Notes: generated from the sequence alone by a model not told the origin. Numbered from the stretch's first letter, positions 6,129 to 48,574 are shown. The stretch is DNA of 64,000 bases from Candidatus Kerfeldbacteria bacterium (GCA_047946875.1 CP181398.1:1169329-1233328), one strand, 5' to 3'. Made by a program: numbers and translations.

Positions 6129-6236
6129 TGGGGTCGGATAGCCCGTCCGCCACAGCTTCGCCGTAGGCGTGCCGGGCGGGCTGTTTACCCCGTCCTTCAT
6201 GGAAGGCGGGGTAAATTTTAGAACTTATTTATTAAG
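6129..6236 (-). pseudogene. tRNA-His-derived repeat copy carrying two GC-rich hairpin insertions
   Basis: tggggtcggatagc..ctgtttacc..ttagaacttattta matches the uninterrupted copy at 11281-11322. This copy has extra 38-nt (6143-6180) and 22-nt (6190-6211) GC hairpins. Confidence 0.6.
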
Positions 6237-6250: not shown

Positions 6251-7048
6251 TTATTTTTTCAATTCAACTACATCAAGTGTGCGATTATAAATCGATGCTG
6301 TCTGGCCGGCATCAACATTCCAGCCAACCTGAAAAGTATGTGATCCAGCAGTAACATCTACCAAGGCATTGAAGGCCATGTTAAATGGACCGCCGGAAGA
6401 AGCGGCAGTTCCTCTTCTAATGGTGTGATCAACTATTGTCCCATCAACAATTAAAAAAGTCCTGGCTGAAACAAAGTCATTATTAATACTAAATACCCCA
6501 CTGAAATTAATTAATACGGTGCTGGCGCCAGTTGTAACAACAATAGTTTCATCTAAAATATCATAATTTGGGGAATTTTGTGTTGTTGTATCCGTAGTTG
6601 TTCCATAAGCTTCACTCGTTTGAGTTATGGCGCCGGCTGCAATATTGGTAGATGTTACTATCCCTGTCCCCATCAAACTTCCCACCGTCAATGATCCGAT
6701 TACTTCCATATTATCATTTACGATAAATGGCATGGTATCACTTGTCCCAGCTGTAGCACCACGCCAAACACGACCGTCTATTCTTACATTATCTCCAAAG
6801 GTCACAGGGTTATCAACACTATTGGTTGTTGTATCGTTTACAATAGAGCCGTTAAAGTAAGTTACTCCTCCAATATCCTGTTCCCCGATCATAATTGAAC
6901 GCATTTTCATAGTTCCATCAACTTGATAAATATCTCCTTCCGGTCCAAATTGGGAGGTGACATTGTGTGTGGCCGCAGCATTTACAATCCCCACCGTTAA
7001 TGCGATGGAAATGATCACTACCAACGATGTTATTAGTTTTTTGTTCAT
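6251..7048 (-). CDS. secreted surface protein, family member A (shares its N-terminal module with the 15173 and 16160 genes)
   Basis: Signal peptide MNKKLITSLVVIISIALTVGIVNA. About 130 aa are near-identical to paralogs B and C (HNVTSQFGPEGDI.QVDGTMKMRS...). The C-terminus is unique. Confidence 0.7.
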   Translation of the reverse strand: MNKKLITSLVVIISIALTVGIVNAAATHNVTSQFGPEGDIYQVDGTMKMRSIMIGEQDIGGVTYFNGSIVNDTTTNSVDNPVTFGDNVRIDGRVWRGATAGTSDTMPFIVNDNMEVIGSLTVGSLMGTGIVTSTNIAAGAITQTSEAYGTTTDTTTQNSPNYDILDETIVVTTGASTVLINFSGVFSINNDFVSARTFLIVDGTIVDHTIRRGTAASSGGPFNMAFNALVDVTAGSHTFQVGWNVDAGQTASIYNRTLDVVELKK

Positions 7049-7066
7049 AAATTTTATGTTTAATGA

Positions 7067-7294
7067 TTATTTATCTTTACACTCTTTGAATATTGTGTCA
7101 CTAGTGCAATCAATATTAGTGCATGGCACCAGTACGCTTAAGCAACTGTCGTCCATTTTGCATTCTTGTTCATTTAATTCAGAGCAAGTTTTACTTCCGG
7201 TAAACAGTATCACGGCGCCAATGATTAATATGATTATGACAATTATTATAATTATATTTTTATTCATATTTTTTCTTATAAATCTAAAATCCAT
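7067..7294 (-). CDS. small membrane-anchored Cys-rich protein (75 aa)
   Basis: Ile-rich TM helix followed by a Cys-rich tail CSELNEQECKMDDSCLSVLVPCTNIDC. Confidence 0.4.
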   Translation of the reverse strand: MDFRFIRKNMNKNIIIIIVIIILIIGAVILFTGSKTCSELNEQECKMDDSCLSVLVPCTNIDCTSDTIFKECKDK

Positions 7295-7479
7295 TCCAGC
7301 AGTTCAATTTGTTTTTCCAGTAATTTTTTCTTATATTTCATTTTAATTTTCCAATCTTTTTCGAAAGAATGGCTATCTTCATCAACTTCCTCTTCCATTT
7401 CTTCTACTTCCTCGTTAATTTCTTCCAGTTCTAATTCCAATTCATCTAATTTGTCTGTAATTTGTTCTTGATTTTTCAT
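7276..7479 (-). CDS. small acidic coiled-coil protein (67 aa)
   Basis: ELELELEEINEEVEEMEEEVDE heptad-like sequence. Overlaps the next gene's start. Confidence 0.35.
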   Translation of the reverse strand: MKNQEQITDKLDELELELEEINEEVEEMEEEVDEDSHSFEKDWKIKMKYKKKLLEKQIELLEWILDL

Positions 7480-7491
7480 ATTTTTTAAAAA

Positions 7492-8376
7492 TTAAAGCTC
7501 TGTAATATAGGTAACAAATATTTCATTATTATCAACTGGATTTATAATTCCTTGCACTATTACAGTTGAGTCTTCATCGAAGAGGTTATTAGTCATGGCA
7601 TCTGTACATTTTGGACGGCTGAAACCTTTTATACATGTACTAATAAAGTCCATAGTATCAAATGTCAATTTTTTATTTAAGGCTGGGCTACCTGGTTCAT
7701 CCCATACTAAGTTCCAATAATTTTCACCGGCTGGTTGAGATAGGTTTCCGCTTTGTTCAAAATCAGTTACCAAAGGATTAATAAATTCAAAATTATTAAG
7801 CATATTTTCTTGAATGTTTGAGTTAGTAGTATTAAGTTCTTGGGTAGTTGAACCCCAAGAAATGCGGTACATATAATTATTATTTGTGACATAGACTGTG
7901 GCACCTGTATCATTCTCATGAGTGTTTCTGGTTAATTTTATGCCATTTTCACCATCAACTTTAATATTTGTTTTTTGATAACCGTCTTGTTCTAACAATC
8001 CAATCTCTGACCAGGTTTCCAATGTTTCACCTGATAGGTCGGCTACATAAATAAAAAAACTGGAATATTTGTAGTCAGATATATCAGCTACACTGGCAAA
8101 TGAGTTGGTGGCGGGTGGAGGAGGACCAGTTACTGCGTCCGGTATATAAAACCAACTGGTTGGATAATCAACTGTGAAATGATAGTTATTGTTGATGAAA
8201 GTTTTCCATTCTGTAACTTTATTTGTATTATTATTGGATATAGGGGAAATGTTTAGATTGGTATTGTCTTCCACATTTTGATCTTGGTTTACTAGATACC
8301 AGGTGAGTCCCCCGCCTAGAATTAAGATTACGAGTATTATAATGAAAATACTACTAACCCCATTTTGATGTTTCAT
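7492..8376 (-). CDS. membrane-anchored secreted protein with an N/T-rich linker
   Basis: N-terminal TM anchor, low-complexity NT linker, then a globular domain. Confidence 0.6.
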   Translation of the reverse strand: MKHQNGVSSIFIIILVILILGGGLTWYLVNQDQNVEDNTNLNISPISNNNTNKVTEWKTFINNNYHFTVDYPTSWFYIPDAVTGPPPPATNSFASVADISDYKYSSFFIYVADLSGETLETWSEIGLLEQDGYQKTNIKVDGENGIKLTRNTHENDTGATVYVTNNNYMYRISWGSTTQELNTTNSNIQENMLNNFEFINPLVTDFEQSGNLSQPAGENYWNLVWDEPGSPALNKKLTFDTMDFISTCIKGFSRPKCTDAMTNNLFDEDSTVIVQGIINPVDNNEIFVTYITEL

Positions 8377-8384
8377 ATTTTTAA

Positions 8385-8954
8385 TTAATTTAATAAATTA
8401 TCTAAGTTTGTACAGTCTAGATATTCATCGTCCGTACAGCAACTTACATTATCATAGGTGCCGTCGGCTCTGTTGCACCAAGGTTGGTCAGAAGAACACT
8501 TTATTATTACTTTTTTTGTATCTTTATAAATAATTTTTTGTGGCCAAGACCACTCACAATAAAATTCTGCAGTTTGATCAATTTCACTATTAATGTTTGT
8601 TGTAACGGTATTAGTGTTGATTGTAGTATTTACATTTATTATAGCCTTATTAACATTAGTAGTGGTATTAATATTTATTACTTTTTCATCATCCTCTTTC
8701 TCTATTTCAATATTTGTTATATCTGCGATGATTTCATCTAATTCTTTTTGGGTTGGATCAAATCCTGTATCATTAGTACATTGTTCTGGACAATAGGTTT
8801 TGGATGAATCCATTATTAGTAAGTCATAACAAACCTCCATACATTTGGAGAATTGTCCTTTTTTTGTTACTCCACCTTGGGACCAGATCAATAACAAAAT
8901 CACACCAGCTATAATCACAATACCTAGGCTGATGAATATTTTCTTTTTATTCAT
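8385..8954 (-). CDS. membrane-anchored Cys-rich secreted protein with an N/T-rich repeat linker
   Basis: TM anchor, NTTTNVN repeats, multiple Cys pairs. Confidence 0.55.
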   Translation of the reverse strand: MNKKKIFISLGIVIIAGVILLLIWSQGGVTKKGQFSKCMEVCYDLLIMDSSKTYCPEQCTNDTGFDPTQKELDEIIADITNIEIEKEDDEKVININTTTNVNKAIINVNTTINTNTVTTNINSEIDQTAEFYCEWSWPQKIIYKDTKKVIIKCSSDQPWCNRADGTYDNVSCCTDDEYLDCTNLDNLLN

Positions 8955-9099
8955 AGTATTATATGAAAATTATTAGATATCCAATGTTCACTTATTATTA
9001 TAGCTAATATTAGTAGATACTTAAAGGGGCTGAAATTTTATTAGATTTTGGGTATATGGTAGACTTACTTTGGTAGGTTATATTATTAAGATATTTATT

Positions 9100-10212
9100 A
9101 TGAAAAATAAAACAATATTTATTGGATTTATAATAGGTGTAGGTATTTTACTATTGGCTGTGATTGGGAATTATTTTAGTAAGGATAATATGACGAAGGA
9201 TGAAGGTATTTTTTCAAATGTTGTCCAAGATAACATAATACAAAGTAACATTAATATATTAGAGGTATCAGATGTGCCAGAAGACTGTGATGTTGTTTTT
9301 ACCCATCGGTTTACAGATATTACAAAAATCAATGCTATCCAGCCAATTGGCTCTATCACCGGCGCTTCTCCTGGTCGTAGTTATTTGGATATTAAAGAAG
9401 GAGAAACTGTCCCGGTATACGCCCCAATGGATGCCACATTAAAATTTATTGCATATTCATATCGTGGCCCAGAGGCGCCTTACCCAGAATATGGTTTTAG
9501 TTTTGATACTGGTTGTGGGGTAACTTTTATGTTAGATCATTTGGACACAATATCGGATGAATTAAAGCAATATGCGCCTATTGAGCCTTCACTAGCAACT
9601 GACGGTACTAATAATCTTTCGGTTGAGGTTGAGGCGGGAACACTTCTGGGATATACTGATGGAACAGAACAGGCTAAAACTTTTGACTTTTTGGTAATAG
9701 ATAAAAATACTGACGTTTTTCATATTAATCCGGAACGATGGGACTGGGATCAAGCGTTGCATGCTGTCTGTCCGTATGATCTATATACAGATGATTTGAA
9801 AAGTGAGTATTATGAAAAAATTGGGACATATTATTACACAGGATTTGTAAAAGCAGAGAGCTGTGGTAATCCATCATACGATATTGTTGGAACAATTTCC
9901 GGTGGGTGGTTTTTGGGAGAAAACGATACGATGATGACTGGTGAGTTTATGACAATTGGCGAGGAGGGTGGTAATGTGTACACAATTGTCAAAAATAATC
10001 TGGAAGATGTAATAATACGCGTGGATGATTACTGGACAGAAGTCATGCCAAAAGATGTTAAGGTTGGGAGTTCAGCATGCTATTTTGACAACAACACAGA
10101 TACTTGGATGTTTTTGAATTTAGTAAGTGAAGAAACCATCCAGCTTGCAAATGGAAATGGGAATTGTCCTGTAGAGTTTCCAGATTCTAATATAAAGATT
10201 TATTCGAGATAG
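9100..10212 (+). CDS. membrane-anchored secreted protein
   Basis: ATG at 9100 (the ORF track's 9070 is a TTG). N-terminal TM segment. No family recognised. Confidence 0.55.
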   Translation: MKNKTIFIGFIIGVGILLLAVIGNYFSKDNMTKDEGIFSNVVQDNIIQSNINILEVSDVPEDCDVVFTHRFTDITKINAIQPIGSITGASPGRSYLDIKEGETVPVYAPMDATLKFIAYSYRGPEAPYPEYGFSFDTGCGVTFMLDHLDTISDELKQYAPIEPSLATDGTNNLSVEVEAGTLLGYTDGTEQAKTFDFLVIDKNTDVFHINPERWDWDQALHAVCPYDLYTDDLKSEYYEKIGTYYYTGFVKAESCGNPSYDIVGTISGGWFLGENDTMMTGEFMTIGEEGGNVYTIVKNNLEDVIIRVDDYWTEVMPKDVKVGSSACYFDNNTDTWMFLNLVSEETIQLANGNGNCPVEFPDSNIKIYSR

Positions 10213-10313
10213 TCTTTATTGGGGTCCCTATCGGTCGGTTAATTTAACTAACCTGATGAAGGTTTTGGGTGATTTTAGGTATATGGTAGGAATATTAAAG
10301 CAAGCCTCAGTAT

Positions 10314-11099
10314 TTATCTAAGGGACTCAATGCATCCTTCATCTGTTTCAATTGAACAAGATTCGCTTAATGTTGTTCCTCCACTAGTGATATCATATAA
10401 ATGTGTCCACACTGTACCGACGCCTGCATCACCAGCTGCGCACATATAGGTAATTACGTTAGTAGTAGACCAGTTTTTTATTGTGCTACATCCCTCATAG
10501 AATGATAAGCTGTGTTCTTCTGCTTTTGTGAAAGTATTTTCACTAATATTGTAAATTCCAAGTTGACTTGTACCGTATGAGTCCTTGTCAGGGTCGTAGC
10601 GATAGGGACTATCTTTTTGTGATTTTAAGTATATAGTTTTATTAAGCTCTTCATTAAAACATACAATATCAAGACCCCACCCTTCAATTATTTGGTCTGA
10701 GAATGTTTGATACCACAAATATTGATTAGTAAGTTCTCCTGGTTGTCTTGAACAACTAAGTTGATATGATGCTTCAGTAGCTTCAATAGAAAAGATGTTT
10801 GTTTCTGAAGTCGCATTTGTGTTTGTCGTTATCGGAGTAGTATTAGTATTTATTTCAGTATTTAAGTTAGTTGTGATATTTGCATTTGCTGTCGTATTAG
10901 TATTCAAATTTAGTGAGGTGTTTGTAACCGTATTTGTATTTGTTGTAGTAGTGGTAGTTGGTGTATTTGCTTCTTCCCTATTCTCCTCATAATACCAAGT
11001 AGCACCAACCAATCCTACGGCCATAACTGAGATTAGTATTACCACCACCCAACGCACATAACCTTTTTGATTTTTCATAGTTATAAATTTAATATTCAA
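10314..11099 (-). CDS. membrane-anchored surface protein with a TN-repeat linker
   Basis: TM anchor, TNTNTVTNTSLNLNTNTT low-complexity linker, Cys-containing C-terminal domain. Confidence 0.55.
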   Translation of the reverse strand: MNIKFITMKNQKGYVRWVVVILISVMAVGLVGATWYYEENREEANTPTTTTTTNTNTVTNTSLNLNTNTTANANITTNLNTEINTNTTPITTNTNATSETNIFSIEATEASYQLSCSRQPGELTNQYLWYQTFSDQIIEGWGLDIVCFNEELNKTIYLKSQKDSPYRYDPDKDSYGTSQLGIYNISENTFTKAEEHSLSFYEGCSTIKNWSTTNVITYMCAAGDAGVGTVWTHLYDITSGGTTLSESCSIETDEGCIESLR

Positions 11100-11165
11100 T
11101 AATTTAAGTATACCAAAAACGACCCTAATAACATATCTATAGGGTAACTTTTATAAAATGGGTGG

Positions 11166-11300
11166 TTAGACCTGCCTACCGGCAGGCAGGGGGAATTACG
11201 CGTCGCCTATTGGCTCGCTTCTACCCGTCCGATTCCCATTTTATCCCATATCAAAAAAAGTTCCACCATATAAATATGATAAAACTTTTTCTGGGGTCGG
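11166..11300. repeat. GC-containing repeat copy X1 (paired with 11735-11892), ending in a degenerate tRNA-His 3' end
   Basis: Shares gcaggcagg..cgcgtcgcc..ctcgcttcta.ccgt.cgattcc.attttr.cccatatcaaaaaaa..tttttctggggt with X2. Confidence 0.6.
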
Positions 11301-11425
11301 ATAGCTGTTTATCTTAGAACTTATTTAATGGATGGATTGGAGGTATATGGAGTGGTTAATAACATAGTTTAGTAGTTTGTGATATAATTAATACATAAAA
11401 AAGAATTAATATTAATTTTATTTAT

Positions 11426-11656
11426 ATGGGCGATCACGTAATTTTAAGATTTCCATTCGACGACCCTGACAATCCAGAGGTAGTTGATGTTCTGGCTAAT
11501 GTACCGGTTCATTGGAAAAAATATCTTAAAGAAATCGCACATAAGACAAAAAAACCAGGAAGATATATTGCGTCTAACATTCTTTATGATGACGAGTATT
11601 ACTATCCCGAGTCAATGGAAAAAAATCATAAAAAAATTGAAAAGGAATCAGAGTAA
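11426..11656 (+). CDS. hypothetical protein (76 aa) lying between the X1 and X2 repeats
   Basis: ORF MGDHVILRFPFDDPDNPEVVDVL... No SD and no family recognised. Confidence 0.35.
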   Translation: MGDHVILRFPFDDPDNPEVVDVLANVPVHWKKYLKEIAHKTKKPGRYIASNILYDDEYYYPESMEKNHKKIEKESE

Positions 11657-11734
11657 TTTTTGAATGATTCAAGACCAAATTATAGATAGTTACCAAAAAT
11701 ACCTCTTAATATTAAAGGCGTTTTTAGAAAAGCC

Positions 11735-11892
11735 GGCAGGGAGAATTTCGCGTCGCCAAAGGCTCCTTGTCCTGGGTAGCGACCCCGCGGTGCGGGGTCG
11801 ACTCTTGCCTTCGTCTCGCTTCTATCCGTTCGATTCCTATTTTGCCCCATATCAAAAAAATTTCATCATCTACAAGGGATAATAAAATTTTT
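11735..11892. repeat. repeat copy X2 directly abutting the tRNA-His 3' end
   Basis: Homologous to 11166-11300. Carries an extra GC hairpin segment (gggtagcgaccccgcggtgcggggtcgac). Confidence 0.6.
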
Positions 11893-11968
11893 CTGGGGTG
11901 GCTAGAGGGAATCGAACCCTCATAGCTGGTTCCACAAACCAGTGCACTAACCGTTGTGCTATAGCCAC
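11893..11968 (-). tRNA. tRNA-His (GUG), with G-1 and 3' CCA encoded
   Basis: Cloverleaf by eye. Anticodon loop TTGTGGA. G-1 is present. Confidence 0.85.
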
Positions 11969-12085
11969 CACGTTGATTTTACATTCCAGGTTACGTATCT
12001 CCGCATTCGCGAATTTACTCCACCTTTCATGTAAATCTGCCTTTCCTCACACATCTGTGCTCATTTTATTGCGCTCCTGATGTGT
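11969..12085 (-). promoter_or_regulatory. divergent member of the conserved tRNA-upstream element family
   Basis: Resembles the tRNA leader repeats at 18922, 19362, 46160, 47269 and 48647. Confidence 0.35.
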
Positions 12086-12112
12086 TCGGGATGTTTAATG
12101 TAAAAAATCAGT

Positions 12113-12199
12113 TGGTGCGGACGGAGGGACTTGAACCCTCACGCACAAAAGTGCCTAGGCCCTCAACCTAGTGCGTATACCAATTCCGCCACGTCCGCC
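12113..12199 (-). tRNA. tRNA-Leu (GAG), long variable arm, CCA encoded
   Basis: Anticodon loop TTGAGGG. 87 nt with an extra arm. Confidence 0.85.
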
Positions 12200-12216
12200 G
12201 GCCATTTATGTTAAAA

Positions 12217-12561
12217 CTATTTTTTAACTTTAGTCTCTTTTAGTCGTTTCTTATAATCTTTTAAGAAGTATAGTTTTGCTCGACGTACTTTAGCTTTTTT
12301 AACAATCTCAATTTTTGAGATTGAAGGAGAATTCAAAGGAAATATTTTCTCTACACCAATACCTTCGGAAATCTTTCTTACAGTAATAGTGGAAGTTAGA
12401 CCTTTACCACCGCGTCGTGATAGGACCATTCCTTCAAATTTTTGGATACGCTCTTTTTCACCTTCTTTAATTTTTTGATGAACAATAACGGTGTTACCAG
12501 CACTGATATCTGGCAAATCTTGTTTTACTTTTGATGTATTCAGTGAATATGCAGTTACCAT
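12217..12561 (-). CDS. rplS: ribosomal protein L19
   Basis: The sequence is L19-like (MVTAYSLNTSKVKQDLPDISAGNTVIVHQKIKEGEKERIQKFEGMVLSRRGGKG...). Confidence 0.9.
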   Translation of the reverse strand: MVTAYSLNTSKVKQDLPDISAGNTVIVHQKIKEGEKERIQKFEGMVLSRRGGKGLTSTITVRKISEGIGVEKIFPLNSPSISKIEIVKKAKVRRAKLYFLKDYKKRLKETKVKK

Positions 12562-12626
12562 AGTTTCTATTTATCTAATAATTATAATTTAAGTAGTTAT
12601 AATAATAGCGATTACAAGCTTTATTG

Positions 12627-13610
12627 TCAAGACTTTTTGAGGTTATTTAGAATATTTTGAAGTTTTTCTGGTAAAGGGAGGGTAAATTCTACCCATTTAC
12701 CATCCAAATCTGTAAAACCTAAGTATTGGGCATGAAGAAAAATTCTACTCATCTTTATTTTGGTTTTAAGTTTTTTTGGTTTATAAACTAGATCCCCAAC
12801 TATTGGTAGGCCATAAGCATTAAGGTGAACGCGGATTTGATGAGTTCGACCGGTTTTTGGCATAATCCTTAATAATGTATAGTTGCCAATATTTTCCAAT
12901 ACTTCAAATCCAGTAATTGATTTACGTCCCCTCTCTTCATGTTCTGGGACAGCTGCCATTTTGAAATCTTTTGTTTCACTACGACTAATATTAAAATTAA
13001 TTTCATCTTCATTCTTTTGAGGTGTGCCATATACTAATGTGATATATTCTTTTTTTATAGTTCTTTCTTTGAATTGGGATTTCAGATGGTCGAACATGTC
13101 TTGTGTCTTTGCTACTACTATCAAGCCAGATACTTCCCGATCAAGCCTATGTACGATACCGGGGCGGATTGGGTTCTCTCCAACTTTTTTTATTTTGGGA
13201 TATTTTTTTACTAGTTGATCAGCAAGAGTTATTTCATTGGTACCATCTGCTTCATGTATCAATAGTCCAGCTGGTTTGTTTACTATTAAATAGTTTTCCG
13301 TTTCAGTAATGATATTTAATTTATGTTGAGCAGGTTTAAATATATTAGTTATTTTTTTTAAAGAGGAAGTAACAAAATTTTCTTGGGAAGTTGTGTTAAT
13401 ATCATTTGTTGTCGTAACTGGTTTATTATCTGTGATAATAATATCACCTTCTTTTAAGAATTTATGGACTACTGCTGACTTATTATTAACCAGGATTGTT
13501 TCATTTTTGATAAGTTTTTGAATTTGGGATCTTGTGATGTCTAATTTTCCTGTCAAAAATTTATCAAGTCTTTTGCCAGCATCATCTTTTGTGATTGAAT
13601 ATCTATTCAT
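12627..13610 (-). CDS. RluA-family pseudouridine synthase (RluD/RluC-like) with an N-terminal S4 domain
   Basis: The catalytic motif HRLDREVSGLIVVAKT is present. The N-terminus has an S4-like segment. Confidence 0.85.
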   Translation of the reverse strand: MNRYSITKDDAGKRLDKFLTGKLDITRSQIQKLIKNETILVNNKSAVVHKFLKEGDIIITDNKPVTTTNDINTTSQENFVTSSLKKITNIFKPAQHKLNIITETENYLIVNKPAGLLIHEADGTNEITLADQLVKKYPKIKKVGENPIRPGIVHRLDREVSGLIVVAKTQDMFDHLKSQFKERTIKKEYITLVYGTPQKNEDEINFNISRSETKDFKMAAVPEHEERGRKSITGFEVLENIGNYTLLRIMPKTGRTHQIRVHLNAYGLPIVGDLVYKPKKLKTKIKMSRIFLHAQYLGFTDLDGKWVEFTLPLPEKLQNILNNLKKS

Positions 13611-15057
13611 ATTTTTTTATATAATCAAAGGATTGTTTTTTAGTTTTAATATTACCTTTGAGTTGTTCTTCTCTTAGAGCATTTTTAATCTTACCAATTT
13701 TGGCTCCAGGTTTTATTTTGAGTGCTTTCATTATTTCATTACCGTTAATTAATTCTTTTGGTAGTACTTTTTTGTTTCTAGAAATTTTTTCTAATGCTTC
13801 TACTTGTTTAACAATTTTGTTGAAATCTTTAAAATTTGGTTGGCCATCTTTTGGTATAGTAGCTTGTATATCAGCGAAAGTTAGTTTGAGTAAATTATGT
13901 CCAGGAACATTCTCATTAAAAAAGTATTTTTCGAGTGTAGTTTTTTTCATGGGAGATTTTTTTGTGTGGGTAGAGATCATATGTTTGCTACATAGCCACA
14001 CAATATTTTCTGCTTTGATTCCAGCGCTGGATAATTTTAATCTTTTTATAATTTCGTCGGTTATTTTTGCACCAACTGTATCGTGATTATTAAATCTAAG
14101 TCTATCAGACCTCTCTATAGTATAGGGTTTACCAATATCATGAAAAAGGGTAGCAAATACTAATTCAGCATCAAGTTTTTCATTTTTATATTTTGTAGTA
14201 AATTTTTTTGAACTTAGATTTTGTAAACATAATAAAGTGTGTTTCCATACATCACCTTCAGAATGGAAATTCCTTGGTTGGGGACATTTCTTCATTTTTA
14301 ACAATTCTGGCATTAGCGCTTTGGTTAAACCGCTCTTGTCATAAAGTTCAAAAGCTAAGGCAGGATTAGCGACGAAAGCTTTAGTCATTTCTTTTGCAAT
14401 AGTTTCTCTAGGAACTAAAAATTCTCCTTTTACTTTTTTATTAATTTGAGGAGTTAATTTTTTTATTGCTGACCAAGTAGCATTATCGATTTTGAAATTT
14501 AGTTGGCAAGCAAAACGAATAGCTCTTAATATTCTTGAGTAGTCTTCTTTGAACCGTTCAGTTGCTAATCCAACAGTTTTAATGTTTTTCTTTTTTAAAT
14601 CTTTGAGCCCATTAAATAAATCAATAATTTCTTTTTTATTAATGTCGTAAGCTAAAGCATTGATCGTGAAGTCACGCCTTTTTAAATCTTCTTCGATTGG
14701 CAGATTTGGATCTGATTGGATATCAAAATCTTTATAGCCACCAGTTAGGAAAGCGTGTTCAGTACGAGGTAGGGCAATGTCGAGAGGTTCTTTTAGAGTA
14801 GAGTTTTTGGGCATAAATTTAAGTACGCCGAATTTTTTACCTACTATATCTACCCAGCCAAGAGTTTTAAGAAATTTAAGAAGTTTATTGACTGATACAT
14901 TACGTATAACAAAATCATAGTCTTTTGATTCTCGCCCAATAAGACTATCGCGAACAATCCCCCCAATTAAAAAAATTTCGGCTTGTGGAATTTTTTTTTG
15001 AAGATGTTTAATAGAAGAAAGTTCTTTTTTTTGCAATAAAGATGTAATTTGTTTCAT
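13603..15057 (-). CDS. cca: CCA-adding tRNA nucleotidyltransferase with an HD domain
   Basis: GGIVRD nucleotidyltransferase motif and HD motif LFHDIGKP. Confidence 0.8.
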   Translation of the reverse strand: MKQITSLLQKKELSSIKHLQKKIPQAEIFLIGGIVRDSLIGRESKDYDFVIRNVSVNKLLKFLKTLGWVDIVGKKFGVLKFMPKNSTLKEPLDIALPRTEHAFLTGGYKDFDIQSDPNLPIEEDLKRRDFTINALAYDINKKEIIDLFNGLKDLKKKNIKTVGLATERFKEDYSRILRAIRFACQLNFKIDNATWSAIKKLTPQINKKVKGEFLVPRETIAKEMTKAFVANPALAFELYDKSGLTKALMPELLKMKKCPQPRNFHSEGDVWKHTLLCLQNLSSKKFTTKYKNEKLDAELVFATLFHDIGKPYTIERSDRLRFNNHDTVGAKITDEIIKRLKLSSAGIKAENIVWLCSKHMISTHTKKSPMKKTTLEKYFFNENVPGHNLLKLTFADIQATIPKDGQPNFKDFNKIVKQVEALEKISRNKKVLPKELINGNEIMKALKIKPGAKIGKIKNALREEQLKGNIKTKKQSFDYIKKYE

Positions 15058-15172
15058 ATAGGTTAAACATAGCTAAATTCATCTTTAAATACAAGTTTTT
15101 TATTATTTAATAGGTATAAAAAATCACCCCATATTACAGAGGTGATTTTTTGAGTTTCTATATATCTAAATT

Positions 15173-16045
15173 TTAGTATATTGCCAGCATAAATACACCA
15201 TCGGCAGGATTTTCATCTTTATCATGTTCCCAAACTAAAACGGTATTTGGATCAGATGCATGAGGAGCAGCGCCAATTAATCTAATAGCAACAGCACCGC
15301 CTGTACCACTTGGAGTAGCGATGTAAGCTCTAGTTGGTGTACCTGAACCATTATTTACAGCAAAATTGAAAGTTACTTCATATCTACCATTGCCAGTATT
15401 TGTGGCAGCAGTAGCATTATATCCACTAGTTAACGTACCTCCTGAACTAACATAGGCCCATCCTTTTAATGCTCCTTCAGCAGATACGGCCTGGGTGATG
15501 TTACCAGTAGTAGTGACTGTGTCAATACTAAGATCGGCAGTTGAGGATATATCGCTTCCAGTGATGGTTCCATCGACAATTTTAGCTGAGGTAATTGCAT
15601 TATCAGCAATGTCAGCGGTGGCAATTGTAGCATCAGTAATATTGTCAGATGTTACTATCCCAGTACCAAGTAAACTTGCTACTGTTAATGATCCAGTAAC
15701 TTCCATATTGTCATTGACAATAAATGGCATTGAATCTGCAGTACCAGCTGTTGCTCCGCGAAAAACACGTCCATCTATACGGACGTTATCACCAAAAGTA
15801 ACGGGATTGTCTACTCCGGCGTTTGTTGTGGTATTGATTATAGATCCATTGAAGTAGGTTACTCCACCTACACCCTGTTCACCGATCATCGTTGATCTCA
15901 TTTTCATTGTCCCATCTACTTGAAATATGTCTCCTTCTGGTCCAAATTGTGAAGTGACATTGTGACTAGTTGCAGCATTGACTATCCCAGCTGTCAAAGC
16001 AATAGAAGCAACTACCACTACGAGGGTTAAAAGCTTTTTTTTCAT
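15173..16045 (-). CDS. secreted surface protein, family member B
   Basis: The N-terminal 150 aa are near-identical to the 16160 and 6251 genes. ITDATIATADIADNAITSAKIVDGTITGSDI repeats. Unique C-terminus. Confidence 0.7.
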   Translation of the reverse strand: MKKKLLTLVVVVASIALTAGIVNAATSHNVTSQFGPEGDIFQVDGTMKMRSTMIGEQGVGGVTYFNGSIINTTTNAGVDNPVTFGDNVRIDGRVFRGATAGTADSMPFIVNDNMEVTGSLTVASLLGTGIVTSDNITDATIATADIADNAITSAKIVDGTITGSDISSTADLSIDTVTTTGNITQAVSAEGALKGWAYVSSGGTLTSGYNATAATNTGNGRYEVTFNFAVNNGSGTPTRAYIATPSGTGGAVAIRLIGAAPHASDPNTVLVWEHDKDENPADGVFMLAIY

Positions 16046-16117
16046 AGGCCTTTTCCTTGTTTAGTTGTTAAATTGATAAATAATCACGATTTTATTATAC
16101 CCTTTTTTTGATAAACA

Positions 16118-16152
16118 AAAAACCGCCCTAGTTGATAGAGGCGGTTTTTTCA
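16118..16152. terminator. bidirectional rho-independent terminator
   Basis: aaaaaaccgccc...gaggcggtttttt. Confidence 0.6.
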
Positions 16153-16159
16153 AAAGTTT

Positions 16160-17077
16160 TTACATTTCGTAAATTATAAAACTAAATGAAGTTTGGCCAG
16201 CTGACCCGGTAGATTCGTCTACAAAATCAACAGTAAAATGATCATTTACGCTATTTGTAGCCGGAATAAATCCAGAATTTATCGGTGTAACAACCGCTAC
16301 ATGAGTAAGATAAGAATAAGTTACCCCAGTAATAGTAATTTCATATTGATTACTACCACCGTCCCAGGAACAAGCTATGTTACTGGTACCACCTCTATCA
16401 GAGCCATCTGAATTACAATAACCATAGGCAATAGGCAGATTGGCACCGCCCGTACCATTGATCTTGTCAGGTGTTATAGCGTCATCAGCTACATCTGCTG
16501 TAGCAATAGTTCCGTCTGTAATTTTTGAACTAATTATTGAGTTACTGGCTAAATCTCCAGATACAATAGTTCCGTCTGTAATTTTAGCTGAGGTAATAGC
16601 ATCATCATCAATTTTTGCAGTTGTAATTACGCTATCAGCTATGTCTGCTGTAGCTATAGTAGCGTCAGTAATATTGTCAGATGTTACTATCCCGGTACCA
16701 AGTAAACTTGCTACTGTTAATGATCCAGTAACTTCCATATTGTCGTTGACGATAAAAGGTTGAGTGTCTCCTGTTCCGGCAGTTGCTCCGCGAAAAACAC
16801 GTCCGTCAATACGAACATTATCACCAAAAGTTACGGGATTGTCTACACCGGAGTTTGTAGTGGCATTGATTATAGATCCATTGAAGTAAGTTACTCCACC
16901 AACACCTTGTTCACCGATCATAACTGATCTCATGTTCATTGTTCCATCTACTTGAAATATGTCTCCTTCTGGTCCAAATTGTGAAGTGACATTGTGACTA
17001 GTTGCTGCGTTGACTATCCCAGCTGTCAAAGCAATAGAAGCAACTACCACTACGAGGGTTAAAAGCTTTTTTTTCAT
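16160..17077 (-). CDS. secreted surface protein, family member C
   Basis: The 5' ~390 nt are nearly identical at DNA level to the 15173 gene. More ITxAKIxDGTI repeats. Distinct Cys-containing C-terminal domain. Confidence 0.7.
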   Translation of the reverse strand: MKKKLLTLVVVVASIALTAGIVNAATSHNVTSQFGPEGDIFQVDGTMNMRSVMIGEQGVGGVTYFNGSIINATTNSGVDNPVTFGDNVRIDGRVFRGATAGTGDTQPFIVNDNMEVTGSLTVASLLGTGIVTSDNITDATIATADIADSVITTAKIDDDAITSAKITDGTIVSGDLASNSIISSKITDGTIATADVADDAITPDKINGTGGANLPIAYGYCNSDGSDRGGTSNIACSWDGGSNQYEITITGVTYSYLTHVAVVTPINSGFIPATNSVNDHFTVDFVDESTGSAGQTSFSFIIYEM

Positions 17078-17108: not shown

Positions 17109-18332
17109 TTAAATAGTTGAGAATGAATTAACTACGGCTTCAAAATCTATAGAATCAGAACTACCTTCATCATATGGCCAATGAGAAAAATCAAAGTAAG
17201 TATTGCCGTTGAAATAATAATAGTTTAGAGTAGTGCCATCAGCTCCTGCCGCACTCATAGTAAAACGTGTCATATTCAATCCATTTCTAACAACATTTTG
17301 TTGAATAATCGGAACGTCATAGACATCTACGTCTTCTATCATAGCATTGAGAAATTCTTCAGCCGTGGTAGCGCCGGCATCTTCAGTAATATCACCACAG
17401 CGGATAAAAAATTGATGACCTAAGGCATATACTTCAGTTGCACCTATACTAGGAAGTGTGGCTGTTTTTAAGAAAAATATACTGGAAGTCATATCATGAG
17501 CGTACCATCCAGTAGGAAGATTTATATTATAACCACAGTCAGTATTCTCATATATTGAGCTCACTTCAACTTCATCAATTACTATCCATTCAAAAGTCGA
17601 AAGGATTGTTTTAGACGTATCAAATTCGGAAACTCCATCAAGTCCGGCCACATCATCTGGATCATCAAAAGCCGCATATATATCATGTCCATTAATTATG
17701 TTTGGAGATAAGCCAGTACTTAGATAAAAGATGTCTTGAATAATTCCATCATAAGTTATGTAGGTAATAGGTATTGATGTATCTCCTAGCATAGTACTGC
17801 CTTCATCAGTTATGTCCCCGGCTCCAATTCCACTGCGCCAAAAAGCGCCAACTTCTTCTCCTGTTATTCGGACGCCAAAATAAGTTATATATTCCCCGCC
17901 AGGTGAGATAAATTTAATATAACGATTTTGCCATCCACCAACCGAGTCTTCAGCTGAGATGTCGACTTCTTCAATCGTCCAGTCTGGTGGGTACATCATC
18001 TGATAGTTATACCAATCATTAGTATAAGTTAACCATCCAGAAGTATTATCGACGGCTGAATTTACGTTTGTTGTTGCATTTATATTAGTTGCCGGTTCGA
18101 GATTAGTATTAATAATATCAGTAGCCTCATTAGTTCCTACCGTTGTATTAATATTTAAAGCAGTGTTCGTGTTAATATTGCTAAATGTAACATTTGCCAG
18201 TGGAGCGGTATTGGTATTTATTGATTCATCATTATTGGCATAAAAATACCAAGCAACTCCCACTAATAAAATAGCAATAGCCAATATAGTAATGATTATT
18301 GTTGTATTAATAATCCCCCTTTGATTATTCAT
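17109..18332 (-). CDS. membrane-anchored secreted protein (407 aa) with an N/T linker
   Basis: TM anchor, NTNTA linker, large globular domain. Confidence 0.6.
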   Translation of the reverse strand: MNNQRGIINTTIIITILAIAILLVGVAWYFYANNDESINTNTAPLANVTFSNINTNTALNINTTVGTNEATDIINTNLEPATNINATTNVNSAVDNTSGWLTYTNDWYNYQMMYPPDWTIEEVDISAEDSVGGWQNRYIKFISPGGEYITYFGVRITGEEVGAFWRSGIGAGDITDEGSTMLGDTSIPITYITYDGIIQDIFYLSTGLSPNIINGHDIYAAFDDPDDVAGLDGVSEFDTSKTILSTFEWIVIDEVEVSSIYENTDCGYNINLPTGWYAHDMTSSIFFLKTATLPSIGATEVYALGHQFFIRCGDITEDAGATTAEEFLNAMIEDVDVYDVPIIQQNVVRNGLNMTRFTMSAAGADGTTLNYYYFNGNTYFDFSHWPYDEGSSDSIDFEAVVNSFSTI

Positions 18333-18431: not shown

Positions 18432-18575
18432 TGGTGGGACGTAGAGGATTTGAACCTCTGACCGTTTGCTTCCCGCCTTTCGGACGGGACAAGTAAGAGG
18501 CAACTTTATCCCGCTAAGAATTGGCGGGATGCTCTACTTTACCCCGCCTATTAAAGGCGGGGCGAGCTGAGCTAA
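18432..18575 (-). pseudogene. 5'-truncated tRNA-Lys copy interrupted by three GC-rich hairpin insertions
   Basis: Matches tRNA-Lys positions 9-76 exactly except for three inserts. One sits in the D-loop (18537-18565), one after the D-stem (18505-18529) and one between anticodon-loop positions 37 and 38 (18472-18493). Confidence 0.7.
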
Positions 18576-18803
18576 TTTATTTTTATATTGATGATTTTTC
18601 TTTTTTAGCCACAATTCGTGCCTCCTTGCCTCTTTATAAGAATGGTGTTTTTTAAAATATACAAGTTTAAATAGTTTATATTTTGAACTGCTGTTGAGTT
18701 TTCCTTGGTTGTGTTCGTGAATACGTTTCCAAGGTTGTATAGAAATACCACAATAATATTTATTAAACTTATTACTATATATTAAGTACGTATAAACATT
18801 CAT
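18534..18803 (-). CDS. small GIY-YIG nuclease (YazA/YhbQ-like)
   Basis: Translation MNVYTYLIYSNKFNKYYCGISIQPWKRIHEHNQG has the GIY-YIG motifs. The C-terminal 14 codons read through the tRNA-Lys pseudo-copy. Confidence 0.65.
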   Translation of the reverse strand: MNVYTYLIYSNKFNKYYCGISIQPWKRIHEHNQGKLNSSSKYKLFKLVYFKKHHSYKEARRHELWLKKKNHQYKNKLAQLAPPLIGGVK

Positions 18804-18842: not shown

Positions 18843-18921
18843 TGGTGGGACGTAGAGGATTTGAACCTCTGACCGTTTGCTTAAGAGGCAACTGCTCTAC
18901 CAAGCTGAGCTAACGTCCCGC
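18843..18921 (-). tRNA. tRNA-Lys (CUU), CCA encoded
   Basis: Anticodon loop CTCTTAA. Clean cloverleaf. Confidence 0.85.
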
Positions 18922-19204: not shown

Positions 19205-19220
19205 CGTCTGCCATCGCCAA

Positions 19221-19292
19221 TACCCTCGAGAGGAATCGAACCTCTATCCACGGCTTAGAAGGCCGTTGTTCTATCCGTTGAACTACAAGGGC
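19221..19292 (-). tRNA. tRNA-Arg (UCU), no CCA encoded, G1-U72 wobble
   Basis: Anticodon loop CTTCTAA. Its first 12 nt are duplicated upstream at 19346-19357 around a GC-rich element. Confidence 0.7.
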
Positions 19293-19345
19293 AATGGCAA
19301 TGGCGGGCAGGTATCCGTTGTCAGGCAGAGCCTGATCCGGCTTTG
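19293..19345. repeat. GC-rich palindromic element between the tRNA-Arg 5' end and an upstream duplicate of that end; member of the REP-like family CCGGCAKAGCCGGATCAGGCTCTRCCTG
   Basis: caggcagagcctgatccggctttgccgg is flanked by direct repeats (a)actacaagggc. Confidence 0.6.
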
Positions 19346-19470: not shown

Positions 19471-19515
19471 AAATAATATTTCGAATATTAGCAATAAAAA
19501 CTATTTAAGTCAATG

Positions 19516-20397
19516 CTAATTGCTGGTATATAGTTTGGTTGTGGTAATAAAGTTATGACCAAGTATTGATTGGATAGATTTGATGTCATAGCCCTGTTTT
19601 TTTAAATGAACTGCATATGCTTGGCGGAGTTTTTCGGGAGTAATATTATTACCTAGATTTGTTTTTTTTGAATATTTTTTTATGATTCTTTGGATGGTAC
19701 GTGGAGTTAGTTGATAAGTTTCTTTTTTAACAGTACTTAGTTGTCTTTTCTTAGCTTTATCATGCCTAATAAATAATGCATTAAATTTATCATTTCTTAT
19801 TTTTAGATATTCATGGACTGCATAACTAGCTTGATTTGATAAATTTAGAGAACGAGATTTTTTCTTACGTAAAATATTGATTGAGTTTGTACTGAAGTTT
19901 ATGTTTTCTTTTTTTAATGAAGCAAGCTCTGATACTTTGAGACCAGAGCATAACAGGAGTTCTAAGATTGCTTTGTCTCTTTTTTGGATAATCCCAGGAT
20001 TTTTTTCATGCAAGGGAGAAGATAATAGTAGATCGATATCTGATTCTTCGAGTGGTTTATAATGTTTTTTTATTTGCTTTTTAAGAACAATTTCCTTGAA
20101 TGGCAATGAATGAATATTTTTCTTCTTTAAATATTCCAAAAAGGATCTTAGGGCTATTAAATGATAGTTTTGTGTATTTATTTTTAATAACTCTTTTTTT
20201 TGATTACGTATAGTGCTTAAGTAGTTTTTGAATAAATCAATTTTTTCTTTGGTAATATCTGAAGCTTGCCTAATGTTGGATTGATTAAAAAAACGGTGAA
20301 GGTAGAAACTATAGTTATTTACAGTTTGTTTCGTAGTTTTTTTCTTTTGCTGAAGATATTCTAAGAAATTATTTAAATTTTTATTAATGTCATTCAT
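19516..20397 (-). CDS. tyrosine recombinase / phage-type integrase
   Basis: C-terminal catalytic region LRQAYAVHL...GYD..SIQSILGH....TTKLYT (R, H-x-x-R, Y). Confidence 0.8.
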   Translation of the reverse strand: MNDINKNLNNFLEYLQQKKKTTKQTVNNYSFYLHRFFNQSNIRQASDITKEKIDLFKNYLSTIRNQKKELLKINTQNYHLIALRSFLEYLKKKNIHSLPFKEIVLKKQIKKHYKPLEESDIDLLLSSPLHEKNPGIIQKRDKAILELLLCSGLKVSELASLKKENINFSTNSINILRKKKSRSLNLSNQASYAVHEYLKIRNDKFNALFIRHDKAKKRQLSTVKKETYQLTPRTIQRIIKKYSKKTNLGNNITPEKLRQAYAVHLKKQGYDIKSIQSILGHNFITTTKLYTSN

Positions 20398-20516
20398 AGA
20401 TTTATTTTACGACACTTATAAAATTTGGTCAAAGGTTGGTTGACTGATAATATTTTTATTGATAAGGTATTTTAATAAGAAAAATAGAACCTTTATATAT
20501 AATAAGGAGCGTAGAA

Positions 20517-41062: not shown

Positions 41063-41430
41063 TAAAAGGTAAAGTTATTCATGGAGAGCATCTAGGTAGG
41101 AAGCAGGGTTACCCAACTGCAAATTTATCAGACAGCGTCCTGGAAGGTACTAATATAGCTAAAGGTGTTTATGTAGCAGAGGTTTTATTGAAAGGTAAAA
41201 AATACCAGTCCGTTTTGATTATTGGTGTACCTGGAGTTAATATACAGAAAGAAGGAAAGGTAGAAGTATATTTATTATATTATCGAGGAAATATATATGG
41301 TAAAGAAATATCTATTACACCAATAAAAAAAATAAGACCTTTAATTATTATTAAGGACAATAAGGAGCTTATTAGTAGAATTAAGCAAGATTTAGAGGTA
41401 GTAAAAAATTATTTTGTTTCAGCTAAATAA
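41053..41430 (+). CDS. riboflavin kinase domain protein
   Basis: GKVIHGEHLGRKQGYPTANL. Confidence 0.65.
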   Translation: MEIIKGKVIHGEHLGRKQGYPTANLSDSVLEGTNIAKGVYVAEVLLKGKKYQSVLIIGVPGVNIQKEGKVEVYLLYYRGNIYGKEISITPIKKIRPLIIIKDNKELISRIKQDLEVVKNYFVSAK

Positions 41431-43760: not shown

Positions 43761-45287
43761 TTATTCTTCAATATTTTTATCTTGAAAAAGACTGCGGAAT
43801 CTAAAAAATTCTGTTAATCGTAGTCCAGTGAATTTACCTAAAATAACTAGTCCAATAATTGGTAGAATAATCAACTCAGGCCATGACATAATAAGACTAT
43901 TGAAGGTATTCCATACAATTAGGTAATAAGCTACTATAGAGACAATAACGGTGGATAGTGCGCTCCAGAGAGCTTCTTTTAGCCCTGCTTCGCTTTGTGC
44001 TGATAGAAACTTCTCAGATAGTGTAGACATAACCAGCATGGGGAAAATCGCAATAGATATTGCAAGAGAAATTTGGTAATAAGATAAAAACCAGACAAAC
44101 CCTAAAAATGATAGTCCAATCAGCGATAAGACGATGCCGGTTTTTGGGATATATAATAATTTGAATTTGTTTAATAATTTACGTAATAAATAACTAACAA
44201 CTACAATGATTAATAGTATACCAATCCCAAATACAATTCCTAATATATAAAGTGAAAGTGAGATTACGAGTGGAGTAAAAATACCAAATGTAGACATGCC
44301 TACGAATTGTCTGGCTAGAGTAATAACAAAGGCAATAAAAGGAAATACTAATAACATATAGATAGTATTGGATGGGATTCCTTTTGTAATAAAATTTGTA
44401 ATTGCGTGTGATAGAAAAAAGATGGGAGATTTCTCACTTCTAGAATCAATAATTCTATATTCTATTGCTCTGTTTGTTAAATTAGTTGATAGAAGGTTAT
44501 AATCTTTTGTTTCAAATATTGGATTTAGTGATTCAGGTCTGGTAAGTAGAATAAAATTAGGTTGTATTACTTGAAATGATTGCTGAGTAAGTTTTGAGGT
44601 TATTCCAATATTTTGATCTGTAATTTTTATAAATAATTTATTGTCTGAGGTAATTTTTTTATCTTCTTCTTGATTTTGCCAATATCGACTAAATGCTTGA
44701 AGCCCAATTGATGCGTTAGTATAAAAAATTAATGAATCAGCATTTTTTATGAATTCACTTTCCTCAGTGATTAGAGGTAATAATTTTTCTTCTGTTAAAA
44801 AGCCCGTATCTTCTTCAACAGCAGATATTACTTTTAATTGAACTCCATTATTAGCAGCTTGATCTTCAATTAGACTAAATTCTTCGAAAATATTTTTATC
44901 TGTAATTAATAATACTTGTTTGTCATAAACAAATATATCTTTTTTTATTAATTCTTTTTGTTCTCGTTGTTGGATAGTAAGAGTAACATTATGTAATCCA
45001 TAACTATCAAATTCGTGAATTACTTCTTGTCCAAACTGAGCTGTGTTGGTATCAGAAAAATCCCAACGGTAGATTGGTGTGCCGGCATCTTTAATAGTTA
45101 TAGAGTCTGATGCATCGAACAATGATTTTTTGCCAAATTCAATATAATCTTCGGAAATAATTATTGGTTGGATTGTATTTATATCAATGTTTTCTTCAAT
45201 CAAAAACTCCTGAGCATTTGATTGTCCAGGTATAAAAATAAATATTATCAGTAGAGGGATTATAGCAAGAATTAACTTTTTCTTCAT
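43761..45287 (-). CDS. signal peptide, ~300-aa extracytoplasmic domain and C-terminal 7-TM domain (7TM-transglutaminase-like partner of the ATP-grasp gene)
   Basis: Signal peptide, large extracellular N-domain, then seven hydrophobic helices. It sits immediately upstream of, and co-oriented with, the ATP-grasp gene. Confidence 0.55.
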   Translation of the reverse strand: MKKKLILAIIPLLIIFIFIPGQSNAQEFLIEENIDINTIQPIIISEDYIEFGKKSLFDASDSITIKDAGTPIYRWDFSDTNTAQFGQEVIHEFDSYGLHNVTLTIQQREQKELIKKDIFVYDKQVLLITDKNIFEEFSLIEDQAANNGVQLKVISAVEEDTGFLTEEKLLPLITEESEFIKNADSLIFYTNASIGLQAFSRYWQNQEEDKKITSDNKLFIKITDQNIGITSKLTQQSFQVIQPNFILLTRPESLNPIFETKDYNLLSTNLTNRAIEYRIIDSRSEKSPIFFLSHAITNFITKGIPSNTIYMLLVFPFIAFVITLARQFVGMSTFGIFTPLVISLSLYILGIVFGIGILLIIVVVSYLLRKLLNKFKLLYIPKTGIVLSLIGLSFLGFVWFLSYYQISLAISIAIFPMLVMSTLSEKFLSAQSEAGLKEALWSALSTVIVSIVAYYLIVWNTFNSLIMSWPELIILPIIGLVILGKFTGLRLTEFFRFRSLFQDKNIEE

Positions 45288-48363: not shown

Positions 48364-48387
48364 ATAGTTAGTATTAATACATCTAAG

Positions 48388-48461
48388 TCGGGGTGGCGAG
48401 ACTCGAACTCGCGACCCCTCGCTCCCAAAGCGAGTGCGCTAGCCAACTGCGCTACACCCCG
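48388..48461 (-). tRNA. tRNA-Pro (UGG), no CCA encoded
   Basis: Anticodon loop TTTGGGA. Confidence 0.85.
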
Positions 48462-48519
48462 ACACAGATGTATTACTAACTATTTTATTTTCAAGGTAAT
48501 GATTTTATTGGAAACTGCG

Positions 48520-48549: not shown

Positions 48550-48574
48550 TAACTATATAGAAAGTTTGGTAAAA

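Follow-up and report, generated by a model that had tools for sequence, protein, structure and literature searches.

Three paralogous genes of a Candidatus Kerfeldbacteria genome and their putative surface fibres with a common N-terminal module and different tips

What do genes encode that share one end and differ at the other, and by what route did their distal parts come to differ? The question is raised by three paralogous open reading frames (ORFs), here termed A, B and C, which all lie on the minus strand of a 64,000-nucleotide (64 kb) stretch of chromosomal DNA in a metagenome-assembled genome of a Candidatus Kerfeldbacteria bacterium (GCA_047946875.1, CP181398.1:1169329-1233328; hereafter the window). 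In the database records of the 1.31 Mb contig, their products are annotated only as 'hypothetical protein'. A preliminary description of the locus had placed the three genes and ascribed to them a common signal peptide and N-terminal module, and this is borne out by ORF calling and by a gap-free alignment of residues 1-136. The reading favoured here, at a probability of about 0.6, is that A, B and C encode adhesin fibres that are exported by Sec, are probably trimeric and have interchangeable tips for ligand binding; a role in attachment seems likely. It draws on their paralogy, the distribution of the family, the modular architecture, the predicted folds of the tips, a signal of past recombination and the absence of switching machinery from the window.

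B and C form a tandem pair, 114 nt apart, and A lies ~8 kb away with housekeeping genes between (rplS, a pseudouridine synthase, the CCA-adding enzyme and tRNA genes); a tblastn search found no further copies in the window. Over residues 1-136, which comprise the signal peptide and the N-terminal module (N-module), identity is 95% between the B and C proteins and 81% between A and either of them. All three genes are complete: each has a start codon and a signal peptide of its own and a hairpin behind it, and since these hairpins are stable (z -3.1 to -3.6) the genes are likely to be independent transcription units. The features are as follows, all on the minus strand (HMM, hidden Markov model; AF2, AlphaFold2).

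6251-7048 (minus): gene A, 265 amino acids (ACNFW9_05735; exact database match, P0059), with signal peptide, N-module, short linker and predicted TNF-like tip
6977-7048 (minus): A signal peptide, residues 1-24, MNKKLITSLVVIISIALTVGIVNA-A, read from the sequence by its basic n-region, hydrophobic core and V-x-A cleavage motif
6641-6976 (minus): A N-module, residues 25-136, from alignments; core HMM E 3e-43
6254-6628 (minus): A tip, residues 141-265, 'A-type', predicted TNF-like jelly-roll β-sandwich, from AF2 and Foldseek
6184-6215 (minus): hairpin downstream of A, with no U-run after it; RNA fold -25.8 kcal/mol, z -3.3
15173-16045 (minus): gene B, 290 amino acids (ACNFW9_05795; P0101, for which an exact-sequence look-up returned no record), with signal peptide, N-module, 3-4 decapeptide repeats and B-type tip
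15974-16045 (minus): B signal peptide, residues 1-24, from protein-level identity to that of C
15638-15973 (minus): B N-module, residues 25-136, from alignments and the core HMM
15476-15637 (minus): B shaft, residues 137-190, decapeptide repeats and neck, from the alignment; PHROG tail-fibre profiles match over residues 91-216
15176-15475 (minus): B tip, residues 191-290, 'B-type', a distant homolog of the C tip by hhalign
15118-15151 (minus): terminator-like hairpin and U-run after B; -16.1 kcal/mol, z -3.1
16160-17077 (minus): gene C, 305 amino acids (ACNFW9_05800; P0091), with signal peptide, N-module, ~7 decapeptide repeats and C-type tip
17006-17077 (minus): C signal peptide, residues 1-24, from the sequence; AF2 helix at residues 2-27
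16670-17005 (minus): C N-module, residues 25-136, from alignments and the core HMM
16463-16669 (minus): C shaft, residues 137-205, decapeptide repeats (xITxAKIxDG), from the 10-residue register, the periodic AF2 pattern and PHROG tail-fibre matches
16163-16462 (minus): C tip, residues 206-305, 'C-type', predicted 8-stranded β-sandwich, from the AF2 model
16118-16149 (minus): terminator-like hairpin and U-run between C and B; -18 kcal/mol, z -3.6

The N-module family and its catalogue of tips

The proteins begin with a signal peptide that, as read from sequence, is of the Sec type in all aligned members of the family; its A-x-A cleavage site is conserved and the alanine at position -1 (A24 in A) is invariant in 86 aligned members. 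In A, AF2 predicts a helix at residues 3-27, over the signal peptide. The N-module that follows, of ~112 residues, is under purifying selection, with a ratio of nonsynonymous to synonymous divergence (dN/dS) of ~0.1 for B and C. Sequence and profile searches found no relatives of it in Pfam, NCBIfam or the PDB: the three proteins and the N-module profile returned just pentapeptide-repeat noise and a marginal match to a left-handed β-helix (E 0.04).

When one reference genome per species was scanned by pattern and tblastn, 134 relatives came to light, nearly all in metagenome-assembled genomes (MAGs) of Patescibacteria (Kerfeldbacteria, WWE3 and unclassified) and often several per genome. An ORF and HMM scan of 78 related loci (which bear L-numbers) plus the window yielded 100 members, typically of 230-370 amino acids, and when 1.84 billion representative proteins were searched exhaustively by HMM, just 453 clusters had the module at E<=1e-3, in all of them at the N-terminus. 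Tandem arrays are frequent: L052 has five members in a row, L027, L065 and L071 have three each, and at least six other loci have pairs. None of the 2.9 million viral contigs of IMG/VR contains the module, and a tblastn search of 50,697 phage genomes gave no match to the family; together with the housekeeping neighbours of the genes, its absence from viral contigs marks the family, as far as sequence can tell, as a cellular and not a viral one. No literature on it was found, and the N-module appears from these searches to define an undescribed and unannotated family that is restricted to Patescibacteria.

The tips on this module are many and recur between genomes. When the last 100-115 residues were clustered across the related loci, the A-type was the most frequent (26), followed by tips ending in 'WFEYTAxQ' (17) and 'YKIVIxY' (12), the B-type (8), tips ending in 'ITYTYTEPY' (8), the C-type (6) and smaller groups that include collagen-like plus Cys-rich tails. 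The 356 members collected in all carry 265 distinct tips, which fall into 39 BLAST clusters, and hence at least 39 tip types are borne by one N-module. Because the types are discrete and recurrent, the three genes of the window can be regarded as a local sample of a design in which one N-module is combined with many tips.

Two further observations concern the reach of the family. Some of its contigs (L013, L016, L020, L022, L025, L029, L044, L045, L067 and others) are labelled Gammaproteobacteria, Pirellulales, Ignavibacteria or 'archaeon'; as these are mostly short and their proteins are 55-65% identical to those of Kerfeldbacteria, mis-binned contigs from the candidate phyla radiation (CPR) seem likelier than a true occurrence outside Patescibacteria. 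Long antisense ORFs (15495-15857, 16440-16763 and 6627-6860, all on the plus strand) overlie the N-module and shaft coding sequence and are found again in 34 related loci; conservation of the sense strand alone accounts for theirs, and they are almost certainly not genes. The top recurring 'neighbour family' proved to be the antisense ORF of the N-module itself and was discarded as an artefact.

Shafts, predicted tip folds and known likenesses

Pairwise BLASTP among the A, B and C tips found nothing significant, and profiles were therefore needed. In an all-against-all hhalign comparison of tip-type profiles, a single pair stood out, B-type against C-type, at E 1e-4 over 84 columns; with deeper alignments the match improved to E 6.4e-6 (probability 85%), its 81 columns covering the domain in full, and the A-type matched neither of the two (probability <1%). 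A homolog search with a mixed B/C tip-only profile (A7) gave no match at E<=0.1, the profile probably being too diluted. The three C-terminal domains had been described as unrelated, with homology among them, as a sign of simple divergence, held to count against exchange of modules: A and the other two do indeed differ in fold, and B and C are homologous.

Structural models of A and C were built by AF2 with family alignments, and the B tip was placed by profile comparison alone. The model of A has a mean predicted local distance difference test score (pLDDT) of 86.8 over its whole length, and its tip (residues 141-263) is predicted to be a 9-stranded sandwich (pLDDT ~97); that of C (residues 215-305) is predicted to have eight strands (pLDDT 92-95). 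A Foldseek search of the PDB with the A tip returned 112 matches at E<=1e-3, all of them TNF-like jelly rolls. They include the cell-binding domain (CBD) from the short tail fibre of cyanophage A-1(L), the receptor-binding domain of lambda gpJ, the C-terminal domain of Chlamydia Pgp3, the trimeric lectins PLTL and BC2L-C-Nt, and the Bacillus proteins BxpB and ExsFA; among the phage receptor-binding folds matched are PDB 8ke9, 8xcj and 9k09. Against the BFVD database of predicted viral structures, the C tip had 19 matches at E<=1e-3, mostly annotated as tail fibres or tailspikes (E 1e-4 to 2e-6), and several are compact, covering 93-123 columns (the size of the tip) at a root-mean-square deviation (rmsd) of 2.5-5 Å. 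The models and the profile match thus describe two predicted tip folds, a TNF-like one in A and, in B and C, divergent homologs of a sandwich that resembles fibre tips. Lectin, Ig and tail-fibre tips had been suggested as folds to look for: the predicted tip of A is like those of lectins and phage receptor-binding proteins, and that of C like tail fibres.

Between N-module and tip, the shaft is built from the decapeptide xITxAKIxDG, of which C has ~7.4 units, B has ~3-4 and A at most one vestigial unit, so that A runs almost directly from the N-module into its tip; the repeats, at first ascribed to all three genes, are a property of B and C. PHROG tail-fibre profiles match residues 90-218 of C (phrog_892, E 2.7e-13; phrog_28766, E 3.6e-10; phrog_21412, E 6e-9), and AF2 gives the C shaft a regular 10-residue period at low confidence. 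Tandem Repeats Finder reports no shaft repeats at the DNA level because they are too diverged there. In other assemblies of essentially the same organism (P0088; L079:862-1899), C has four extra decapeptides and 345 instead of 305 amino acids, which is either a real polymorphism of shaft length or a collapse of repeats in one assembly; that P0088 might be C with a longer called start was rejected, as it consists of C plus four shaft repeats.

Other shafts occur in the family. Three distant members (L045:6001-6627, L053:5923-6501 and L059:5911-6636) have collagen-like GXY repeats instead of decapeptides, followed by Cys-rich 'GWECV' modules, and short members (P0001, P0004-P0006) consist of the Cys-rich module alone; A, B and C contain no GXY repeats. 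A relative of the C-type, P0130 (220 amino acids, partial), has an extra segment, STYSLGAPTNQFKDAFFNGTVWLSG, between N-module and shaft, which we take to resemble motifs of phage tail-fibre proteins.

The architecture invites comparison with several known systems. Like phage tail fibres and receptor-binding proteins (lambda gpJ, cyanophage A-1(L), T-even phages, P2 and the R-pyocin), the proteins combine a conserved proximal N-terminus, a repetitive shaft and an exchangeable tip; shaft repeats and tips both point to such fibres (for the C tip through models, not experimental structures), and a mosaic evolution with recombination between constant and variable parts is likewise common to the two. 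They differ in setting, as the genes lie among housekeeping genes and not in a virion or tailocin cluster, and in the Sec signal peptide of their products; in addition, no virion-attachment domain was found to which the N-module is related, and no phage relatives were found at the sequence level. On the TNF-like trimeric lectins (the N-terminal domain of Burkholderia BC2L-C, 2wq4, and Photorhabdus PLTL, 9ib7), the predicted A tip superposes over nearly their whole length (132-134 columns, TMt 0.67-0.71, rmsd 3.0-3.4 Å), although sequence identity is 11-17% and in A the domain would terminate a fibre that begins with a novel N-module. Nap proteins of the BclA type and Chlamydia Pgp3 have the same overall three-part layout of N-terminal domain, trimeric spacer (fibrous or coiled) and C-terminal TNF/C1q-like trimer, with Pgp3 and BxpB/ExsFA among the fold matches of A and GXY shafts in the three relatives named above; in contrast, A, B and C have another N-terminal module, no collagen repeats and no sequence similarity to them, and the organism is not a spore former. 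By analogy, the best-supported reading is that the fibres would work in the manner of phage tail fibres or of nap proteins of the BclA type and belong to neither family.

Divergence and recombination of B and C

The DNA of B and C shows 91.6% identity in the first 405 nt and 89.7% when 477 nt are compared, and A is ~73% identical to either. The similarity of B and C begins at the ATG and decays within the repeats around nt 450-480; their upstream and downstream flanks are no more similar than shuffled controls, and homologous terminators after B and C were considered and rejected, the 63% similarity lying within the shuffle range (up to 67%). The two 5' ends, earlier called almost identical, are thus clearly homologous, with 34 differences in the first 413 nt. 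These differences are clustered, 2 falling in nt 1-134, 31 in nt 135-333 and 1 in nt 334-413 (P ~2e-4 to 4e-4 in a permutation respecting codon position). Over codons 1-135 (Nei-Gojobori), dS between B and C is 0.30 and dN is 0.032, and dS between A and either is saturated. A dS of 0.30 between the N-modules means that exchange is rare or old: where a recent duplication or gene conversion had been proposed, the recency does not hold, and conversion over evolutionary time agrees with the mosaic differences.

Recombination can also be judged across genomes. If the tips predate the separation of the species and no recombination has taken place, one would expect B and C to be no closer to each other in their N-modules than each is to its tip-ortholog elsewhere. 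The premise on tip age holds, since tips of the B-type and of the C-type are each found in several genomes (L052, for instance, has both). The window's genes compare with each other and with their closest tip-orthologs as follows, and the pattern is the reverse of this expectation.

B and C: N-core identity 92%; tip identity not significant
A and B: N-core identity 83%; tip identity not significant
A and C: N-core identity 82%; tip identity not significant
B and L022: N-core identity 73%; tip identity 62%
C and L017: N-core identity 81%; tip identity 65%
A and L025: N-core identity 78%; tip identity 73%

The same pattern is seen in another MAG, in which the N-cores of L020, L022 and L029 are 88-94% identical. 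Across the family, however, pairing with the same tip type in another genome still prevails: the nearest neighbour of an N-module is of this kind in 39 of 83 cases and carries a different tip in the same genome in 10 of 83. N-modules that are closer within a genome than between tip-orthologs, together with the mosaic of B and C, show gene conversion and/or replacement of tips, and the frequency of this exchange is evolutionary, not physiological.

Alternative explanations, significance and neighbouring genes

As adhesin fibres, A, B and C would be exported through Sec by a signal peptide that is then cleaved. The N-module would be their common proximal end, where it may trimerise and/or dock the fibre to a shared partner at the cell surface and so retain it there; the tail-fibre-type decapeptides would form a shaft of variable length; and the distal globular β-sandwich would bind a ligand, in the most probable case a glycan or some structure at the surface of another cell. 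A would present a TNF-like tip of the trimeric lectin/phage receptor-binding kind, and B and C two divergent versions of a tail-fibre/tailspike-like tip, so that one chassis could display several binding specificities per genome. Attachment to hosts or substrates would fit the episymbiotic lifestyle of cultivated Patescibacteria; epibiotic growth of one cultivated patescibacterium has been shown to need multiple adhesins, some with lectin-like domains (PMC10633639). Over evolutionary time, genes would have been duplicated, tips exchanged and shaft repeats gained or lost, with gene conversion keeping the N-modules of one genome alike; diversity would have come from these events and not from a programmed switching device. 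More tentatively, the family could be a cellular counterpart of phage tail-fibre modularity, in which a Patescibacteria-specific docking module plugs tips like those of phage receptor-binding proteins into a common socket on the episymbiont surface; tips and shaft may then have come from phages, with their export taken over by Sec. If this were true, the set of tips in each genome would encode the hosts or surfaces to which the cell can attach, and the homogenisation of N-modules would reflect co-evolution with the socket.

Several points weigh against adhesin fibres. Export, trimerisation, surface retention and ligand binding are all deduced from sequence and models. No anchor is recognisable in the three sequences (LPXTG, lipobox, SLH or C-terminal transmembrane segment), so that the proteins could be released rather than displayed, and no partner gene was found consistently adjacent across loci. 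Profile and Foldseek searches found neither a sequence nor a structural relative of the N-module, which has no regular secondary structure in the AF2 monomers of A and C (in A, almost none by DSSP in spite of a pLDDT of ~80-88), and its part in docking or trimerisation is for these reasons purely a deduction; the monomer models of N-module and shaft do look as would be expected of a chain that folds only as an intertwined oligomer. The C tip had no match in the PDB at E<=1e-3, with none of A's targets listed, and its phage matches are to predicted models only.

Programmed antigenic or host-range variation, in which the distal modules of A, B and C would be exchanged frequently by conversion of the pilE/pilS kind, a shufflon or a diversity-generating retroelement (DGR), is improbable. 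The R64 shufflon (Rci/PilV) and Neisseria pilE/pilS do likewise join a constant N-terminal part to alternative C-terminal parts, and the ~400 nt of homology between the constant 5' modules of B and C could support recombination; past conversion tracts are indicated by their mosaic differences, and the repeat number of the C shaft varies between assemblies. There is also a tyrosine recombinase 2.4 kb upstream of C, the sole recombinase in the window (19516-20397, minus; XerC/D-like, with Phage_integrase and SAM-like N domains), which may be a housekeeping Xer or the remnant of a mobile element. However, inverted repeats near it or in the B/C locus are only short, AT-rich matches at chance level, the scanned ORFs of the window include no reverse transcriptase, and in these 64 kb (of a 1.31 Mb genome) a sensitive blastn search found the paralogs and the internal repeats of C, and no silent or partial cassettes and no template-like repeat. 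All three copies are complete and separately terminated, those of B and C are substantially diverged, and an independent metagenome contig of the same locus, L079, is 100% identical over the B part and 99.2% over the C part (9 mismatches plus the difference in repeat number), with the same tips on the same genes. The absence of a DGR, already noted in the preliminary description, is confirmed, and its idea of a built-in substrate for cassette exchange finds no support; variation in the manner of phage receptor-binding proteins and adhesins applies as regards the constant N-module, the different distal modules and past recombination, and not as regards active exchange. Phage genes in the strict sense, that is, fibres of a resident prophage, tailocin or contractile-injection particle, are highly improbable. 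The PHROG matches of the shaft, tip folds common among phage receptor-binding proteins, and the nearby integrase-family and tRNA genes would suit them, but virion fibres lack the Sec-type signal peptide present in every member of this family, which is also missing from the viral data searched; A is separated from B and C by 8 kb of housekeeping genes, and no phage structural (capsid, tail, baseplate) or lysis genes were found near the three among the scanned ORFs.

The constant N-terminus, variable C-terminus, tandem arrays and many C-terminal types also recall in outline the polymorphic toxin loci (Rhs, CDI, LXG), in which a constant trafficking module carries variable killing or targeting domains, and lectin-like bacteriocins exist. 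That A, B and C are effectors of this sort is nevertheless very improbable: the modelled tips of A and C are small β-sandwiches of a binding type, unlike the folds of nucleases, deaminases, pores or peptidases, a Pfam search of the three proteins found no domains for toxicity or trafficking, and none of the genes is followed by a small immunity-type gene, the hairpin being succeeded by a paralog or a housekeeping gene. Closest to adhesin fibres, and unlikely rather than improbable, is a purely structural role as fibrils of the envelope (associated with a nap or S-layer, compare BclA of the exosporium) with no specific recognition, the diversity of tips then reflecting drift or escape from phages or grazers. 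The two explanations overlap and differ solely in the role of the tip. An N-terminal anchor, fibrous shaft and TNF/C1q-like tip, the match of the A tip to the exosporium proteins and the collagen-like shafts of some family members are all in keeping with such fibrils, which would make the family a new but ordinary one of surface proteins; on the other hand, 39 tip clusters that are reused across genomes, several per genome, are more typical of modules of binding specificity, and the best fold matches of A include lectins and phage receptor-binding domains.

Host recognition by the ultrasmall Patescibacteria (CPR) is little understood beyond a few cultivated Saccharibacteria, and present knowledge of their attachment is about type IV pili and further adhesins of Saccharibacteria and Southlakia (PMC11623550, PMC10633639). 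The N-module family would add a candidate determinant of host specificity, defined by sequence, in a different and uncultivated CPR lineage, and would exemplify the use by cells of an architecture like that of tail fibres, with export through Sec. It is a multi-copy family whose conserved N-module provides a handle by which members are easily found, and its tips form a discrete catalogue, the distribution of which could be correlated with co-occurring hosts and the members of which could be expressed for binding tests.

Elsewhere the window contains genes for PNPase, NusA, H+-PPase, trigger factor, SMC, ATCase and 16S rRNA. The recombinase gene adjoins those for tRNA-Arg (19220-19293), tRNA-Lys (18843-18919) and a small GIY-YIG nuclease (18534-18803), and a weak 26-nt inverted repeat (77%) lies around it at 19488-19513 and 20440-20465. 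A group of clustered genes encodes proteins that are predicted to be secreted or anchored in the membrane and that begin with a hydrophobic helix (7492-8376, 8385-8954, 10314-11099 and 17109-18332, all minus; 9070-10212, plus), several of which have Asn/Thr-rich low-complexity linkers (NTNT...) after the helix and whose assignment to families is limited to a weak PsbP_2 match; the gene at 17109-18332 (minus) lies 32 nt upstream of C and is conserved together with it in L079. The full-length 16S rRNA gene (49208-50698, minus) is followed by tRNA-Ile, tRNA-Phe and tRNA-Pro (48387-48835), and Rfam detects neither 23S nor 5S rRNA in the window, which suggests that the rRNA genes are not linked. 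A fusion of an ATP-grasp (ATPgrasp_ST) domain with a MATCAP-like peptidase (41409-43754, minus) adjoins a membrane protein with PKD and 7TM_transglut domains (43761-45287, minus), a pairing that is known and poorly understood. Finally, the 689-amino-acid product of 52462-54531 (minus) contains a right-handed β-helix and NosD repeats and is possibly another surface or glycan-active protein.

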